Source of the DNA: a virus
Lineage: Duplodnaviria; Caudoviricetes
DNA: 26,907 bases
Reading direction: 5' to 3' (one strand)
Virus record (IMG/VR): IMGVR_UViG_3300011335_000666
Location: 1 to 26,907 of that record
The notes beneath the pieces were generated by a model that saw only the letters and a program-made list of their open reading frames with translations, did no database searches and was not told the origin of the DNA. Below are positions 1-23,547 of the stretch, piece by piece. Both the position numbers and the translations under genes were made by a program. How positions within the stretch are numbered: position 1 is the first letter of the stretch; the number at the start of each line of letters is the position of its first letter.

Positions 1-476
1 CCTTGTGCTTGTTCACTCAATAGATCAGCTATGAATGCTGCTACGTCTTCAATTGTGTTTAGTGAACCTCTATCTACATATAGGAAGAATCCTTTGTAGT
101 CTACAATTTCACCTGTTGCTTCATCAACAACTGGTTCCATTTCAAAACCCATTTGTTGTGCGTGCTCCCAATTCCATTTCATCTCAGTCACAATGAAGAT
201 AGGTAATACACCCATCTTCTGTGCTGCTACAGCCGCTTCTAGCATTGCTGTTGTTTTACCCGTATCCGAGTGGCCACGTAATAGTGTTATGTGGCCCATC
301 GGAATACCAGGCAATGAAATAACATCTTGGAAGGCTTTAGACAGTTGAATCCATTTTTGTGGTTTGAATTTAACCGATTGATCTAAAAACTTGCTCTTTT
401 TGAATGAAGACAGATCAAATGTCTTGTTAAGCGAATTGCTTACCACCTCACTCAGTGAGCTCTTACCTTTTGCCAT
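1..476 (-). CDS. uvsX: RecA/UvsX-like recombinase, N-terminal part (runs off the left edge)
   Basis: Not in the ORF track; translated by hand from ATG at 476: MAKGKSSLSEVV...GIPMGHITLLRGHSDTGKTTAMLEAAVAAQKMGVLPIFIVTEMKW. It has the RecA-type G(I/L)PxG motif, Walker A GHSDTGKT and a catalytic-Glu-like TE motif, and lies directly downstream of the SSB gene. Confidence 0.88.
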   Translation of the reverse strand, partial: MAKGKSSLSEVVSNSLNKTFDLSSFKKSKFLDQSVKFKPQKWIQLSKAFQDVISLPGIPMGHITLLRGHSDTGKTTAMLEAAVAAQKMGVLPIFIVTEMKWNWEHAQQMGFEMEPVVDEATGEIVDYKGFFLYVDRGSLNTIEDVAAFIADLLSEQAQ

Positions 477-493
477 AAATTTTGTTTAATTGA

Positions 494-1321
494 TTACGAA
501 AATAAATCGTCGAACTTGTCAGACGGACTTGCTTTAACTGCTGTTGTATCCAGTTTATACGTTTGTTCTACTGGTTTTTGCATTTCAGTTAGGAAATCGT
601 CTTCTTCCTCTTCTTCATCCTTAGATGCGATTGGAGCGTCAGTGTCTTCTTCGCTATCTGGATTTAGCCACTTATCTAATAAATCTTTCAATTCATCAAA
701 TGAATAGTGTTTGTTGATACCGAGAATGTCTGGTTGTTCATCTAATGCTTTTGTTACGATAGTAGCATCATCAGAGATAGCGGATGTTTTAGGTTTAACA
801 CGAATGTTACATTTGATACCTTTTCTACCAGCAACTACATCTTCTACTGCTTCAATTGTAAAGTCACGTCCATCAGTGATGTCTGTGAAATCACCATAAT
901 CTTCGTCTGCAGCGATACCTAATAATTGCTCATAAATTAATTTACCAAATTCCCATAGGCGAGGGCCTTGTGCTTCTTCACCACGTACCAATACTGGGAC
1001 GAAGTAACGTAATTTTGGTTCAATTTTTTTAGCTAATTGCCAATCTTCTTTGTCAGCAGATTTGCGGAGATTCTTTGCGAATTCAGCGATTGGGTCTTTC
1101 TCGTTCCAATTAGTCAATGCTAAGATTGGTCCTTTGGAGAAACCATAGTGGAAATAAACTTCGCGGAATGGGTTTGATTTGTCGAACTTAGAGGGGAGAA
1201 TCCTGATCTGATACTTGCCTGGTTTTGGCTTGAAGAAAATCTTTGTGTAATCGACTTTTTCACGTTTTTGTCCTTTTGTTTGAGAAGCGGACAACTTCTG
1301 CTTGATGACTGATAAGTCCAT
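494..1321 (-). CDS. T4 gp32-like single-stranded DNA-binding protein
   Basis: 275 aa with IRILP, FHYGF, YFVPVLVRG and D.TD...GRDF motifs typical of gp32-like phage SSBs; strongly acidic C-terminal tail ending FDDLFS; located between the polymerase and recombinase genes. Confidence 0.85.
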   Translation of the reverse strand: MDLSVIKQKLSASQTKGQKREKVDYTKIFFKPKPGKYQIRILPSKFDKSNPFREVYFHYGFSKGPILALTNWNEKDPIAEFAKNLRKSADKEDWQLAKKIEPKLRYFVPVLVRGEEAQGPRLWEFGKLIYEQLLGIAADEDYGDFTDITDGRDFTIEAVEDVVAGRKGIKCNIRVKPKTSAISDDATIVTKALDEQPDILGINKHYSFDELKDLLDKWLNPDSEEDTDAPIASKDEEEEEDDFLTEMQKPVEQTYKLDTTAVKASPSDKFDDLFS

Positions 1322-1427: not shown

Positions 1428-1811
1428 TTATATACTTGATACTCCAGTACTGCTAATTAAGGCTTCTCTACCGTCCTCTGTTTCAATAGCAAGTAGTACA
1501 TCTGGCTGTGATGGGTGATCTATGATATCAAATACCTTGCCTATATCACCTGCCTTTACTTGATCATTTACTTTTTTATTTTTGAAAGCGAGTTGCCTAA
1601 ATAGGTCACTATATTCTTTGTATATACTACCAGTGTCTACTACTTTAACATCGCCTCCTAGTCTAATCCCTTGATCTATAAGTTCTTTACGATCTCGTGC
1701 AACGTGTGGTCCGGGTTTAATAATTCTGTTTCTGTCATATACGTCTATATTTTCTTTTAAAATACCAGCCAATTGCTGCATTCTTTTAATTTCGTTAATT
1801 TGTTGTTTCAT
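1428..1811 (-). CDS. Hypothetical protein, possible internal head protein
   Basis: 127-aa ORF with N-terminus MKQQINEIKRMQQLAGILKEN containing (I/L)xE sites; preceded by the ATATTTAT motif at 1816-1823. Confidence 0.6.
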   Translation of the reverse strand: MKQQINEIKRMQQLAGILKENIDVYDRNRIIKPGPHVARDRKELIDQGIRLGGDVKVVDTGSIYKEYSDLFRQLAFKNKKVNDQVKAGDIGKVFDIIDHPSQPDVLLAIETEDGREALISSTGVSSI

Positions 1812-1815
1812 GTAT

Positions 1816-1823
1816 ATAAATAT
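1816..1823 (-). promoter_or_regulatory. ATATTTAT late-promoter-like motif
   Basis: Exact copy of the recurrent motif, 4 nt upstream of the ATG at 1811. Confidence 0.55.
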
Positions 1824-2245
1824 TAATTTCTACTAAAATCTACAATCTTATGTATGGCAGTATCTAATTTTCTTAGATCAGGGCCATTAGTTAATAATAT
1901 GCTATTTTTATAATCCTGCCAATTCACTATAAAATTCTTATCCATTCTACCACCATTCAATGTTTTAATTAATGTATTTAATGCATTGATAGTATATAGA
2001 GTATTAGACTCTTTCTTTCTGTGTAACAGGATAGTGTTAGCCATAGGCGACGCCGTCATATTACCTGTATCAATATTATACGTACATATCAATTCATCAC
2101 TTTGTGGTGACTCTAATACAAATATTTTATTAAATAATATTGAGTATTTGCGATTAATAGTCGCTACCGTTTCCTCTAGGTCTGCTGGTGAGGTGAATGA
2201 GCAGAAAAGCTTGTTCAAGTCAAAAAATTCGTTTAATTGTTCCAT
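1823..2245 (-). CDS. Hypothetical protein of the replication block
   Basis: 140-aa ORF immediately downstream of the polymerase gene, with basic/aromatic motif LLHRKKESNTLYTINALN; no family recognised. Confidence 0.7.
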   Translation of the reverse strand: MEQLNEFFDLNKLFCSFTSPADLEETVATINRKYSILFNKIFVLESPQSDELICTYNIDTGNMTASPMANTILLHRKKESNTLYTINALNTLIKTLNGGRMDKNFIVNWQDYKNSILLTNGPDLRKLDTAIHKIVDFSRN

Positions 2246-2246
2246 T

Positions 2247-2254
2247 ATAAATAT
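2247..2254 (-). promoter_or_regulatory. ATATTTAT late-promoter-like motif
   Basis: Exact copy 1 nt upstream of the ATG at 2245, inside the palindrome TATAAATATTTATA (2246-2259). Confidence 0.5.
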
Positions 2255-3547
2255 TTATATTTTCTCCAAACCATGATACGTCTTGCCCTGCTTAACGTTA
2301 ATAGGGTAGTGTATTAGTTCTTTGATGTTAGTTAATAAGTCCTTACCATCTTCCTCAGCATAATCAAATAAAAATGCATCATAAGTATAAAGAACAAGTT
2401 TAGTTTTTTTATCTTTTAAATAGGTTAATATGTTATCTAACATCGCTACGTTATTGGATGTTTCATGACTTTGAACAATATAATTTAATAATTTGGATTG
2501 TGTCATTTCTTTATCCAATGTAAATATACGATTACGTGTTGCGTATTGTTTACCATATTGATATTCATCCCATATACCATCTGTTAGTGTTACAATATCT
2601 TTAAAGAAGGGTTGATTGCGGTATTCTTTCCATACACCACCATATAATTGTTTAAATGTTAATTCCTTAGCTTCTTGAGGTGATACACCCAATAATTCAC
2701 CTAATAATTCATATGTGTTTTTATCACCAAAATTAAATCCAATCATATCACCTAATATGCGTGGGTGATATCCCTGAATATCAAATTCAACAAATTTATC
2801 GTTTGTGGGTCTGTAGCATGCTCGCTCACCATTATTTTTATCCAGCGCAACAAAATTAATACTATTGTATGTGTTTGATGGCCTACCAGTTAATGTATAT
2901 AAATTGTATTGACTGTATATTCTACCTTTGCTAAGGTTGAGTTGTGGATATGATAAGTTAGCGCCATAAGCATCAATAAAGCATTGCTTATCTACTTTAA
3001 TACCATTTGATTCTATAGCGTGAAATACACGCGTTAATGGGCCGTTATTAAACGCATAAACAACGTTATTTGCGCGGTACTGTTGGATTATTGGAAGTAC
3101 TATATCAAATATATTCTCGCATTCTTCATAGTGTTTACTAATTGGAATTAGTTTATTTGTTATAGGATTGGCTGTGTGTTGTCTATAATAGAATGTATGA
3201 CATGATGTAAATACACCTGTTAGATCTGGGTGTTCAATAAAATTGATGTCATATAGTTTATCTGAGTAGTTAAAATGATACAGTGCTTCTTTCTTATTCA
3301 GTACGAATAAGCGATCAGTATTTCCTAATAACCAGTTAAGTGTTTCTTGTTTGTCTAATGCAAATGATTCGTTGTGATCTAAACACAGCATATACCCTTT
3401 ATGTTGTGTAATATCACGAACATAAATTAAACTTAATGGGCTTAATTTGGGATGGTAGTTGTCGTTTTGTTGAATGAAGTGAATGAAGCAATCATTAAAC
3501 GGACCTAATTTATCTAGTTGTTCTTGTCTCTCTATAATATAAAACAT
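2255..3547 (-). CDS. Family A DNA polymerase-like protein, reduced and divergent
   Basis: PolA motifs in correct order: IESNGIKVD, TGRPSN (cf. TGRLSS), motif A FDIQGYHPRIL (cf. DYSQIELRIL), motif B AKELTFKQLYGG, NYIVQS (cf. N.PIQG), motif C LYTYDAFLFD (cf. VHDEL). Only 430 aa. Confidence 0.85.
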   Translation of the reverse strand: MFYIIERQEQLDKLGPFNDCFIHFIQQNDNYHPKLSPLSLIYVRDITQHKGYMLCLDHNESFALDKQETLNWLLGNTDRLFVLNKKEALYHFNYSDKLYDINFIEHPDLTGVFTSCHTFYYRQHTANPITNKLIPISKHYEECENIFDIVLPIIQQYRANNVVYAFNNGPLTRVFHAIESNGIKVDKQCFIDAYGANLSYPQLNLSKGRIYSQYNLYTLTGRPSNTYNSINFVALDKNNGERACYRPTNDKFVEFDIQGYHPRILGDMIGFNFGDKNTYELLGELLGVSPQEAKELTFKQLYGGVWKEYRNQPFFKDIVTLTDGIWDEYQYGKQYATRNRIFTLDKEMTQSKLLNYIVQSHETSNNVAMLDNILTYLKDKKTKLVLYTYDAFLFDYAEEDGKDLLTNIKELIHYPINVKQGKTYHGLEKI

Positions 3548-3565: not shown

Positions 3566-3596
3566 TGAAGATACGAAAGGAATTTTGCTTTACAAA
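3566..3596 (-). promoter_or_regulatory. Bacteroidota-type sigma70 promoter candidate upstream of the polymerase gene
   Basis: Minus strand reads TTTG-N19-TATCTTCA; near-identical upstream half to the SSB promoter candidate. Confidence 0.6.
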
Positions 3597-3598
3597 AC

Positions 3599-15334: not shown

Positions 15335-15342
15335 ATAAATAT
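15335..15342 (-). promoter_or_regulatory. ATATTTAT late-promoter-like motif upstream of tape measure
   Basis: Exact copy immediately after the terminator hairpin and 23 nt upstream of the tape measure ATG. Confidence 0.6.
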
Positions 15343-18279: not shown

Positions 18280-18287
18280 ATAAATAT
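18280..18287 (-). promoter_or_regulatory. ATATTTAT late-promoter-like motif upstream of tail tube
   Basis: Exact copy in the sheath-tube intergenic region. Confidence 0.6.
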
Positions 18288-20062: not shown

Positions 20063-20070
20063 ATAAATAT
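20063..20070 (-). promoter_or_regulatory. ATATTTAT late-promoter-like motif upstream of tail sheath
   Basis: Exact copy 44 nt upstream of the sheath ATG. Confidence 0.6.
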
Positions 20071-20922: not shown

Positions 20923-21732
20923 TTAAAAAGTTGCTATAATTACAAGGCCATCGCCGCCTTTACCTCCACTAGCTCCTGCTGCGGCTCCTCCCCCACACCC
21001 TCCACCTCCAGATCCTATTCCACCATCACCTCCTCTACCACCTACTCCTGCGTTATTGCTATTACCTCCAGCTCCTCCTAATGAAAAGAATGGTTTCCAA
21101 AAAGTGGTACCTGAATCACTAATACCCCCAGCATTTATTACTGTGCCACCGGATATGTTTGGTGTTGTAAAAGTTCCTAAATCAATAGATCCTATATTTG
21201 TTCCAAAACTTATACCAACTGTACCTCCATTTCCTCCAGGGCATGTAAAAGCTGTTGTTATTAGCGGTGTTATAGTTGCTGTGTTTGGGTTAGTTCTTCC
21301 TGCTATTGATATAAAATTTCCTAATGATAGTAAATTAGCACTCGCAGCTGTTGCTATTGACTCTCCTGCACCTGCTACTGTGGCTGCTGAGTTACCTGAT
21401 ATACATACTAGGTTCATTGATGTAGCACTACTTGGGGTTACAGATACAAAGCTTCTATTTGCATTTGCAACAACCCCGGCACCGGGTTGTACATATAACG
21501 TATCTGGTAGTACGTTAGCTGGGAATAGTGCTCTAGTTACCGCTCCTGATCCTCCTCCGAAACCAGCAGCGGTAGTTCCTGTTGTTTGACCTCCAGCTCC
21601 GGCTCCAATACACATCATCCAAATAAACTTACAGTTTCTTGGTTTTTGCCATGTTTGCCAATCACTAGTACCTCTAGCGTAAAATATCTTTATGTTATCT
21701 TGTTGTCCAGGTATATTAAATATATCTAACAT
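20923..21732 (-). CDS. Glycine-rich tail fibre-tip / receptor-binding-like protein, paralogue 3
   Basis: 269 aa; WQTWQKPR...CIGAGAGG, LPDTLYV and terminal GGKGGDGLVIIATF, as in phage glycine-rich domains. Confidence 0.7.
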   Translation of the reverse strand: MLDIFNIPGQQDNIKIFYARGTSDWQTWQKPRNCKFIWMMCIGAGAGGQTTGTTAAGFGGGSGAVTRALFPANVLPDTLYVQPGAGVVANANRSFVSVTPSSATSMNLVCISGNSAATVAGAGESIATAASANLLSLGNFISIAGRTNPNTATITPLITTAFTCPGGNGGTVGISFGTNIGSIDLGTFTTPNISGGTVINAGGISDSGTTFWKPFFSLGGAGGNSNNAGVGGRGGDGGIGSGGGGCGGGAAAGASGGKGGDGLVIIATF

Positions 21733-21736
21733 ATTA

Positions 21737-22612
21737 TTAAAAACTTGTTGTTATTATTATTATTCCATCTCCACCTTTACCACCGTTACCTCCAGCAGTA
21801 ACACCACCACTTCCACCTCCTCCACCACAGCCATATGATCCATTACCCCCATTACCTCCTGTTGTACCTCCACTTTGACCTCCAGTTCCACCTATAAATT
21901 GTAGTGCTGGTTTTGTAAGCATAAAACCATCGTATCCATTGCTACCGGCAACTCCAGCCGAAGCTGTTGTAAATGCGGCTAATGAAGGTATAAATCCTTG
22001 TCCATTAAGTCCTCCTGCTGTACTAGTTCCACTACCACCAGCTCCTGCTGTTGTTGTTGAGCTTGGGGTTATACCTCCTGCTATCCCTGTAGAATTACCT
22101 GCTCCTGAGCTTACCCCTGCTATTGCTGTAAATGTTCCTAGATTTAAAAATACTGCATTAGCCGTTGTTGCCACTGTTTCACCCGCGGCTGCTGTGTTCG
22201 AAATAGCTCCTCTAGCTGATACGTTACCTGACGTAACTACTATATTTGATATTGAAGCTGTACTTGGTGTTAGACAAATATATGATTTTTCACCATTACT
22301 AGCCGAATTAAAAGTTGATGTTAAGCTTGCTAAGCTTCCTGTCCCACCAGCCCCTGTGTAAACGTATAATATATCTGGTAGTATGGATGCTTGAAATTGA
22401 GCTCTTACTATCCCTCCTGCCCCTCCACCTGCTCCGCCAAAGCCTCTAGCAGAACTGCCAGTAGCAGCTCCACATCCACCACCTCCACCCCCAATACATA
22501 ATATATTTACAAACTTAGCACCTCTTGGTTTAACCCAAGTTTGCCAAGTACCGGCAGAAGTAAAGGTCTGTGTATTTGAATAGTTATTTTGAAAGTATGA
22601 TAAATCTAACAT
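21737..22612 (-). CDS. Glycine-rich tail fibre-tip / receptor-binding-like protein, paralogue 2
   Basis: 291 aa; WQTWVKPR...CIGGGGGG, LPDILYV, terminal GGKGGDGIIIITTSF. Confidence 0.7.
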   Translation of the reverse strand: MLDLSYFQNNYSNTQTFTSAGTWQTWVKPRGAKFVNILCIGGGGGGCGAATGSSARGFGGAGGGAGGIVRAQFQASILPDILYVYTGAGGTGSLASLTSTFNSASNGEKSYICLTPSTASISNIVVTSGNVSARGAISNTAAAGETVATTANAVFLNLGTFTAIAGVSSGAGNSTGIAGGITPSSTTTAGAGGSGTSTAGGLNGQGFIPSLAAFTTASAGVAGSNGYDGFMLTKPALQFIGGTGGQSGGTTGGNGGNGSYGCGGGGGSGGVTAGGNGGKGGDGIIIITTSF

Positions 22613-23547
22613 TAGAATATTGTTGTTATAATTACTAATCCGTCTCCACCTTTACCACCATCACCACCACCACCAGCTGTAGATAATCCACCTCCACCTC
22701 CTCCTCCACCACTTCCATACCATCCATCACCTCCTTTACCTCCTTTTGTTGTTAATGAACCAGCACCTCCTGCACCTCCCATGCTACAGAGTGGATTTAA
22801 AGATCCATATCCATTATTTCCTATTCCACCTGGTGCTAATCCGCCTGATACAAACGAAGTTAAAATTACGCCAGCTCCTGCTAGTGTAGCTCCGTTAAAT
22901 TGAGTGGTATTGCCTGCTTTTCCTCCTCCCCCACTACCGCCGGTTACTATATTTGACGCTAATGCTGCTGGTCCTGCTGGTGGTGCTGTGTTAATTCCAC
23001 CAGCTGTACCTGCTACACCGGCAGAAGATGATATTATTCCTAGACTAGCAAATGGATTAATAGAAGTGGCTGGTACCCAAGCAGTACCTGCTGCTCCTCC
23101 TGCTCCAACACCACCTGTACCTCCTGCTCCTCCTCCACCTGCTCCCGTTGTTGTAGCTGATTGTATTATTACAGAGGGTGATGTTGGGCTTGAAGCTAGC
23201 GATACATAGCTAATTCCTCCTACTGTCCCTGCAGCTCCACTAGTTCCTCCTGTACTACCTATTCCTCCTGCTCCTCCTGTCCCTACTTGCACATATAAAT
23301 TATCAGGTAATAAAAAGGCAGGGAATATTCCTTTACTAAAGGCGGCCCCACCGCCACCTCCTGCTCCACCAACGTTATTGACTGATGTATTTCCTGCTCC
23401 ACCACCTCCACCTCCTCCTCCACTTAAACAAAATATTTGTATAAAATTAGCATTACGTGGTTTTTGCCATGTTTGCCAAGATCCACTATTTGCGTAAAAT
23501 ATTTTAGTACTATCTGTATTAGATGGTATGTGAAAAACGTCTAACAT
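22612..23547 (-). CDS. Glycine-rich tail fibre-tip / receptor-binding-like protein, paralogue 1
   Basis: 311 aa; WQTWQKPR...CLSGGGGG, LPDNLYV, terminal GGKGGDGLVIITTIF; TAATG overlap with the next gene. Confidence 0.7.
   Translation of the reverse strand: MLDVFHIPSNTDSTKIFYANSGSWQTWQKPRNANFIQIFCLSGGGGGGGGAGNTSVNNVGGAGGGGGAAFSKGIFPAFLLPDNLYVQVGTGGAGGIGSTGGTSGAAGTVGGISYVSLASSPTSPSVIIQSATTTGAGGGGAGGTGGVGAGGAAGTAWVPATSINPFASLGIISSSAGVAGTAGGINTAPPAGPAALASNIVTGGSGGGGKAGNTTQFNGATLAGAGVILTSFVSGGLAPGGIGNNGYGSLNPLCSMGGAGGAGSLTTKGGKGGDGWYGSGGGGGGGGLSTAGGGGDGGKGGDGLVIITTIF

Follow-up and report, generated by a model that had tools for sequence, protein, structure and literature searches.

A thumbless family A polymerase of the divPolA1 family, with histidine at the steric-gate position, in a T4-like phage fragment

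A gene of the divPolA1 family (Yutin et al., 2024, Virol J 21:200, PMC11348598) has been identified in a T4-like phage fragment of 26.9 kb (26,907 nt, hereafter the window) that also carries tail sheath, tube, hub and lysin genes. The encoded protein of 430 aa retains the catalytic palm of family A DNA polymerases, and lacks two canonical features of the family, the full thumb and the motif A Glu. Our preferred reading, to which we assign a probability of about one half, is that it is a distributive enzyme, directed by a template, which extends 3' ends already present and then hands over to the clamp-bound main replicase. The features discussed below are as follows (equalities refer to Klenow residues).

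2255..3547, minus strand: divPolA1 gene, degenerate 3'-5' exonuclease domain, palm and fingers with the thumb deleted (profile and structure)
3083..3547, minus strand: N-terminal exonuclease-like domain, approximately residues 1–155 (Bst large fragment superposition from residue 1)
2927..2989, minus strand: thumb remnant, 21 residues with one 8-residue helix (187–194)
2759..2782, minus strand: motif A, DIQGYHPR (D256 = D705, Y260 = I709, H261 = E710)
2642..2668, minus strand: motif B (K294 = K758, F298 = F762, Y302 = Y766)
2462..2473, minus strand: Q359 (= Q849) and the family-specific, near-invariant E362
2375..2383, minus strand: motif C, Y389-D390-A391 (= H881-D882-E883), in YTYDAF
3566..3597, minus strand: conserved motif upstream of the polymerase, candidate early promoter
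2247..2254, minus strand: candidate late promoter, a ATATTTAT motif immediately preceding the 140-aa gene
1823..2245, minus strand: candidate partner, an ORF of 140 aa without a known family, with a predicted ferredoxin/ACT/RRM-like fold at the N-terminus
494..1321, minus strand: gp32-like single-stranded DNA-binding protein (PF08804, E 7e-13; PHROG SSB)
1..476, minus strand: RecA/UvsX-like recombinase, cut by the contig end (PF00154, E 3e-6)

Membership in divPolA1 follows from 33% identity to gp001 of Flavobacterium phage vB_FspM_immuto (419 residues, E 1e-74) and from synteny, the gene order from the tail sheath to SSB and RecA being the same as in Immuto. The family was described computationally in 14 Immuto-like phages of 155–190 kb as having a truncated thumb, an inactivated exonuclease and a conserved palm, with conserved replication genes downstream and, in the same phages, another polymerase of the regular type (family A, B or C) (PMC11348598; preprint 10.1101/2024.04.26.591309). 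The gene studied here has full-length homology, a catalytic palm, a truncated thumb, a dead exonuclease domain and downstream replication genes; the exemplar, Immuto, has the same thumb, exonuclease and palm, with a second regular polymerase in relatives. Nothing of substance differs from Immuto, the copy here belonging to a PolB-bearing branch, and Immuto having a PolA of 777 aa as its second polymerase. The novelty implied by the initial annotation is not supported: the thumb truncation, the dead exonuclease and the second polymerase had already been published (PMC11348598).

A full-text search for divPolA1 retrieved Yutin et al. 2024 and its preprint only, and a literature search, mostly outside subscription papers, found no biochemical assay of the family. 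The main text of PMC11348598 does not mention His at the E710 position, and its divPolA1 section mentions neither the 140-aa neighbor nor the upstream motifs, while Figures 4 and 5 of that paper may show both the His and the neighbor. Two observations are added here: a putatively early upstream motif that the gene has in common with those of the clamp, primase and loader, and a conserved neighbor of 140 aa with a putatively late motif of its own.

The assignment to family A rests on profile and structure comparisons, because the single divPolA1 sequence has no match in Pfam, PHROG or PDB-sequence searches. For a profile built from 134 relatives the top match is the Klenow fragment (E 3.5e-9), each of 54 listed matches being a family A DNA polymerase; hhalign of the family profile with Klenow yields probability 95.9 (E 5e-9), with T7 DNA polymerase, a weak match (E 0.009), and with T7 RNA polymerase, none (E 0.47). 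The profile aligns DydaYHlr with DYSQIELR of Klenow, so that Y260 corresponds to I709 and H261 (codon 2765-2767) to E710, which upholds the earlier placement of His at the steric gate.

In the AlphaFold model (pLDDT 97.3, pTM 0.94) the thumb position is occupied by one 8-residue helix only, in agreement with the nearly thumbless enzyme suggested earlier. Foldseek matches listed for this model are all family A DNA polymerases (best E 5e-16). The exonuclease-like domain, palm and fingers of the E. coli Klenow and Bst large fragments superpose on it; for Bst, Z is 26.0 and rmsd 3.7–4.0 Å, and the alignment takes in approximately 400 of the 580 residues of Bst, along residues 1–428 of the model. 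As the superposition spans residues 1–428, the N-terminal ~155 residues are exonuclease-like, and the missing part is mostly the thumb. As modeled, the protein is a Klenow-like fold without the thumb.

The interval between GIKVD and GRIYSQ comprises 21 residues, exactly at 2927-2989 as annotated, versus 104 in E. coli Pol I (hand count from D548 to G653 of the NC_000913 reference), close to the ~100 residues given in the initial annotation for this interval. The G-to-R spacing across it (G182–R222 here) is 39 here, 19–39 in 133 relatives and 123 in E. coli Pol I. The DIQGYHPR form of motif A, the Lys and Tyr of motif B and the YTYDAF form of motif C are present as claimed.

The family is very large, with more than 1,000 clusters (1,064 at 50% identity, E up to 1e-3), versus 14 phages listed in PMC11348598. 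The initial search for relatives, in a length range of 236–753 aa, had yielded 5,313 matches among 8,000 scored candidates; in the length-unrestricted search, the best 150 of the 1,064 clusters are all of 471 aa or less. Representatives of these best 150 clusters were used to assess conservation, 133 of at least 395 aa (28–61% identical to the query) being kept and 17 shorter ones dropped. These relatives are not full-length canonical polymerases: the thumb deletion and the His are retained across the set, residue 261 being His in 130 and Gln in three.

The Klenow residues whose equivalents are kept in divPolA1 are D705, K758, F762, Y766, R668, Q849 and D882. Both catalytic aspartates are retained, as had been claimed (D256 in 133/133 relatives, D390 in 132/133), R222, equivalent to R668, is found in all 133, K294 and Q359 in 132 each, Y302 in 128 and F298 in 124. 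Judging from these residues, the protein is probably catalytically active. Other positions differ from Klenow: I709 is replaced by Tyr, E710 by His, R754 by Tyr or Pro, H881 by Tyr, E883 by Ser or Ala, and N678 by Ala (115/133). Residue 260 is Tyr or Phe in 128/133 relatives, and among closer loci His at 261 together with an aromatic residue at the I709 position is observed in 249/249 distinct frames. Tyr also occupies the H734 position here and in 46/133 relatives, and E362 is a family gain (132/133).

Three features had escaped the initial annotation. One is the degenerate 3'-5' exonuclease domain of ~155 aa at the N-terminus, in which the ExoI D-x-E motif was found in 0/133 relatives (with the register set by motif, not by coordinates). 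Another is that the equivalent of R754, at residue 290 shortly before motif B, has been lost family-wide (Pro here; Tyr in 84 and Arg in 11 of the 133). The third is the replacement of E883 by Ser, Ala or Gly in all 133. The enzyme is intact and under purifying selection: dN/dS is 0.08–0.12 in 7/7 pairs, and 98 distinct intact frames measure 415–441 aa. As dN/dS is ~0.1 and the length uniform, among matches of 236–753 aa and the best 150 of the unrestricted search, decay was rejected.

In the window, the polymerase gene is followed by the 140-aa ORF, a variable insert, the gp32-like SSB gene and RecA, and both in Immuto and in a complete 170-kb relative (G001, 86% identical in the polymerase protein) RecA is followed in the run by genes for a Pol I-type 5'-3' exonuclease and for DnaB. 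Compared to Pol I, divPolA1 has no 5'-3' exonuclease in cis, this being a separate downstream gene in relatives. In every locus with room, the divPolA1 gene heads the replication run.

The earlier suggestion that a second full-size polymerase be sought was followed in the genomes of relatives, to which the counts refer, the source genome being represented by the 26.9-kb fragment only. Such a polymerase is present in 16 of 18 contigs, in 13 cases PolB and in three PolA (770–794 aa), and the two contigs without it are 46% and 68% complete; PolC was found in none of the 18. All nine near-complete relatives have PolB, and all nine have DnaG. In G001, both the exonuclease and the polymerase motifs of PolB are intact, with a clamp-like gene (E 7e-7) and genes of both loader subunits nearby, and zinc and TOPRIM motifs are visible in its DnaG. 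Since relatives carry PolB and DnaG, divPolA1 is probably not the replicase, in line with the initial proposal, and probably not the routine primase either, so that a primer-making role, also proposed initially, is weakened for routine synthesis. In one relative (G010:C1 86123-86770) the PolB match lies in a frame of 556 aa, versus ~860 aa in others, and that gene is possibly split or interrupted.

The 140-aa ORF is a core gene of the phage clade. It is found downstream of the polymerase in 116/116 loci with at least 700 nt of downstream sequence (139 loci were examined, some contigs having been fetched twice), in 113 of them within 300 nt; conversely, the polymerase precedes it in 75/75 loci for which 600 nt or more of upstream sequence is available (five of the 80 examined being set aside). 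Clustered at 90%, its family numbers at least 8,000 relatives, and it is more conserved than the polymerase, with ~55% identity where that of the polymerase is 35%, and with invariant HRKK and LYTINALN stretches. For the predicted model (pLDDT 89), residues 2–76 give only generic ferredoxin/ACT/RRM-like matches (Z up to 6.0, rmsd 2.5, 69 residues aligned), which cover the N-terminal half; an OB fold is conceivable in the C-terminal half. No Pfam family is common to more than 9 of 92 members, PDB sequences give no match better than E 0.5, Foldseek finds none in PDB at E 0.001, BFVD returns the own family only, and Atlas gives no usable match. A resemblance to T4 RegA was rejected (hhalign E 0.52).

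The constant adjacency makes this protein a candidate partner of the polymerase, and several observations count against a specific partnership, namely control-gene sharing, absence of fusions, an upstream motif of its own, and unequal dS. The two genes co-occur in exactly the same six phage records; this was dropped as evidence, because a sigma-like control gene is found in the same six. Among 14 longer forms of the 140-aa ORF, three contain polymerase pieces, all three being singletons; since 94%-identical relatives of the best one hold two separate genes, and 0 of 285 loci with both genes (300 examined) have them fused, these were rejected as natural fusions and read as assembly or frameshift artefacts. 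In two pairs dS of the 140-aa gene is far above that of the polymerase (1.8 vs. 0.6 and 3.3 vs. 0.8), which suggests recombination between the two genes, and variable insertions may drive it. Such insertions include a 127-aa ORF in the window (1428-1811, minus strand), the initial ~25 residues of which are found again in other inserts, two loci in which endonuclease-like ORFs separate the polymerase from the neighbor (L006 2132-2911, L010 11343-12122), and a NUMOD-bearing ORF inserted around the 140-aa gene in G001.

Two motifs are observed in upstream regions, and we consider them candidate early and late promoters. The early-type motif, with consensus TTTG...AAA...TTATATT, was learned from 90 distinct polymerase upstream regions and resembles the Bacteroidota TAnnTTTG promoter. 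In G001, it is found before the clamp (rank 10 of 212), dUTPase (12), primase (26), sigma-like (27) and loader (29) genes, while none of the annotated structural genes is above rank 57; top scores also occur before many small ORFs, and the first rank of the polymerase gene is a circular result, because close relatives of it are in the training set. The early motif fits a replication role, and would agree with a transcription factor too.

The late-type motif ATATTTAT is found in G001 before the terminase, portal, sheath, tube and hub genes. In the window it occurs 15 times versus 7.8 expected (2 of 100 shuffles reach 15). Eleven sites on the minus strand of the window, before structural genes and the 140-aa gene, include 2247-2254, 15335-15342, 18280-18287 and 20063-20070; at 2245-2258 it forms a perfect palindrome, TATAAATATTTATA. 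TATTTAT follows the polymerase stop in 67/89 loci and is upstream of the polymerase in 2/89.

According to our preferred reading, the thumbless divPolA1 would add a few nucleotides to existing 3' ends, which could be DnaG RNA primers, gaps that the neighboring 5'-3' exonuclease leaves behind, or ends with which the recombinase invades a duplex. A partner, either the 140-aa neighbor or SSB, would tether it in place of the thumb, and after a short extension the end would be handed over to the clamp-bound replicase. Processivity is expected to be low in the absence of both the thumb and the primer contacts of Q677/N678; in Klenow, these two residues have a primer-binding role. Non-proofreading primer extenders have precedents in Pol alpha and in B. 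subtilis DnaE. The reading is supported by the operon with SSB, RecA, the 5'-3' exonuclease and DnaB, and by the early motif common to the clamp, dUTPase, primase and loader genes. However, primer extension and gap filling are within the reach of T4-type PolB and of Pol I-type enzymes, and the reading does not explain why an additional extender would be required.

The sugar pocket is probably rebuilt by the Tyr-His pair and Glu362. E710, the steric gate, has been called universally conserved in family A; in Klenow its substitutions impair the handling of correct nucleotides, and A and Q are mutators (PMC3715850). Klenow I709F accepts rNTPs better, and engineered Taq variants listed as rNTP-accepting have Gly at the gate (PMC4854868). 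The gate here holds a bulky His, not a small gate-opening residue, and the F762 and Y766 equivalents are kept; as an aromatic residue is also present at I709, sugar selectivity is plausibly relaxed rather than reversed, and the enzyme would probably still prefer dNTPs, less strictly. The loss of R754 and Tyr at H734 may mean a lower nucleotide affinity or another chemistry.

A tentative alternative is de novo priming, as by the staphylococcal CCPol-MP, with the 140-aa protein or SSB holding the single-stranded template; primers of DNA, RNA or both would be made at origins or restart sites, and DnaG would serve the lagging strand. Loss of the thumb and of the Q677/N678 contacts, with the template-sensing residues kept, agrees with it, as do the aromatic-His pair in 249/249 frames, given that Klenow I709F raises rNTP use (PMC4854868), and the small conserved neighbor with invariant HRKK in 116/116 loci. 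CCPol-MP demonstrates that a PolA with a small protein can prime, and a shortened thumb helix has been proposed to admit the first triphosphate (PMC7581432). On the other hand, DnaG is intact in 9/9 near-complete relatives, CCPol itself retains E710 and F762 and uses dNTPs (PMC7581432), MP has a predicted OB fold (10.1101/2022.12.02.518924) whereas the neighbor here is ferredoxin-like in its N-terminal half, and no fusion is seen in 285 loci. An extended and more doubtful form would make divPolA1 and the 140-aa protein a third kind of phage primase, which at origins, or where forks have stalled, would begin chains of RNA or of mixed RNA-DNA de novo in the rebuilt Tyr-His/Glu362 pocket; if true, this would explain why the gene is fixed in more than 1,000 clusters whereas the replicase varies between families A, B and C.

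The likeness to these systems has limits. CCPol-MP of SCCmec (Bebel et al., 2020, PMC7581432) and PolA-SSB primases (Rice, 10.1101/2022.12.02.518924) contain a non-proofreading, poorly processive PolA, as divPolA1 probably is, with a small conserved neighbor gene upstream of a helicase. CCPol, however, keeps E710 and F762 and has lost most of the exonuclease domain (PMC7581432, PMC10201439), whereas divPolA1 has His and the whole domain; moreover, in these elements PolA stands in place of a primase, while divPolA1 phages have DnaG. The divPolA2 of barbaviruses is also a thumbless divergent PolA beside a regular PolB, and by its description has no exonuclease domain, an unrelated N-terminal domain and variable neighbors (PMC11348598).

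We consider it unlikely that the enzyme synthesizes RNA, i.e., short transcripts or R-loop primers, by analogy with T7 and mitochondrial single-subunit RNA polymerases. The gate Glu is indeed replaced, and by eye motif C YD[S/A]F is like HDSF of T7 RNAP, and the acidic residue three positions after Q359 recalls its HSQD. At the same time, the family profile does not match T7 RNAP (E 0.47), matches listed in both structure searches are all DNA polymerases, the T7 RNAP gate is Gly (DGSCSGIQH) and not a bulky residue such as His in DIQGYHPR, and the 430-aa model has no promoter-binding domain. Late transcription could be explained by the sigma-like gene (4/4 near-complete genomes, weak and below the cut-off).

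A non-canonical nucleotidyltransferase that adds tails without a template, primes synthesis from a protein or incorporates modified nucleotides, perhaps as a counter-defence, likewise seems improbable. The fixed pocket changes (Y260, H261 and Y389, R754 and E883 lost, E362 gained) would suit such a function, and relatives have 7-deazaguanine and sugar-modification genes; yet the equivalents of R668, Q849 and Y766, involved in minor-groove contacts and template sensing, are kept, and the gene heads a replication run, the modification genes being located elsewhere.

It is highly unlikely that divPolA1 is a core replicative polymerase for one strand or both, with processivity conferred by accessory proteins and the exchangeable regular polymerase in a secondary role. 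It is true that the gene stays constant where the regular polymerase varies between families A, B and C, and that the conserved replication run is the context of divPolA1 and not of the regular polymerase (Yutin et al., PMC11348598), which would allow a more central role; against this, it has neither a thumb nor proofreading motifs for genomes of 155–190 kb, and G001 has PolB with intact motifs near the clamp and loader genes. A decaying or catalytically dead scaffold, to which the lost R754 and E883 equivalents and the degenerate exonuclease motifs might point, is very improbable in view of the near-invariant catalytic Asp pair and K758 in 133 relatives at 28–61% identity, dN/dS ~0.1, and the 98 distinct intact frames of 415–441 aa.

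The family appears to belong to the core gene set of T4-like phages that are abundant in aquatic habitats, and a cultured exemplar exists, Immuto on Flavobacterium sp. LMO8. The interest of the family lies in a PolA working without a thumb, in the role of His at the sugar gate, where a residue called universally conserved in family A is replaced throughout a very large family, and in a second polymerase that is constant while the main one is swapped. The polymerase–neighbor pair is also found in a 190-kb phage recorded on Microcystis elabens (PP395634 50397-52063, L070) and in a 484-kb jumbo phage (LR756508 241321-244167, L071); these two are beyond the 155–190 kb range and the Flavobacterium host of the published group. 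In GTDB species genomes only four MAG contigs, from unrelated taxa, contain divPolA1, and they are probably binned phages.

Some further genes of the clade were observed. The sigma-like ORF of ~260 aa (G001:C1 7625-8401, L151; also L161–L164), annotated as hypothetical in Immuto, has a weak, below-cut-off Sigma70_r2 match in 4/4 near-complete genomes (five genomes tested) and is a candidate late sigma factor of the clade. G001 carries QueC, QueD, QueE and FolE genes and a long sugar-nucleotide/glycosyltransferase cluster (L155 12480-17643 and L157), and Immuto also has DpdA. No tRNA genes were found in the 26.9-kb window. Three tandem glycine-rich paralogous ORFs (269, 291 and 311 aa) are located upstream of the tail sheath gene at 20923-23547 on the minus strand, and probably encode tail fibre or decoration proteins.
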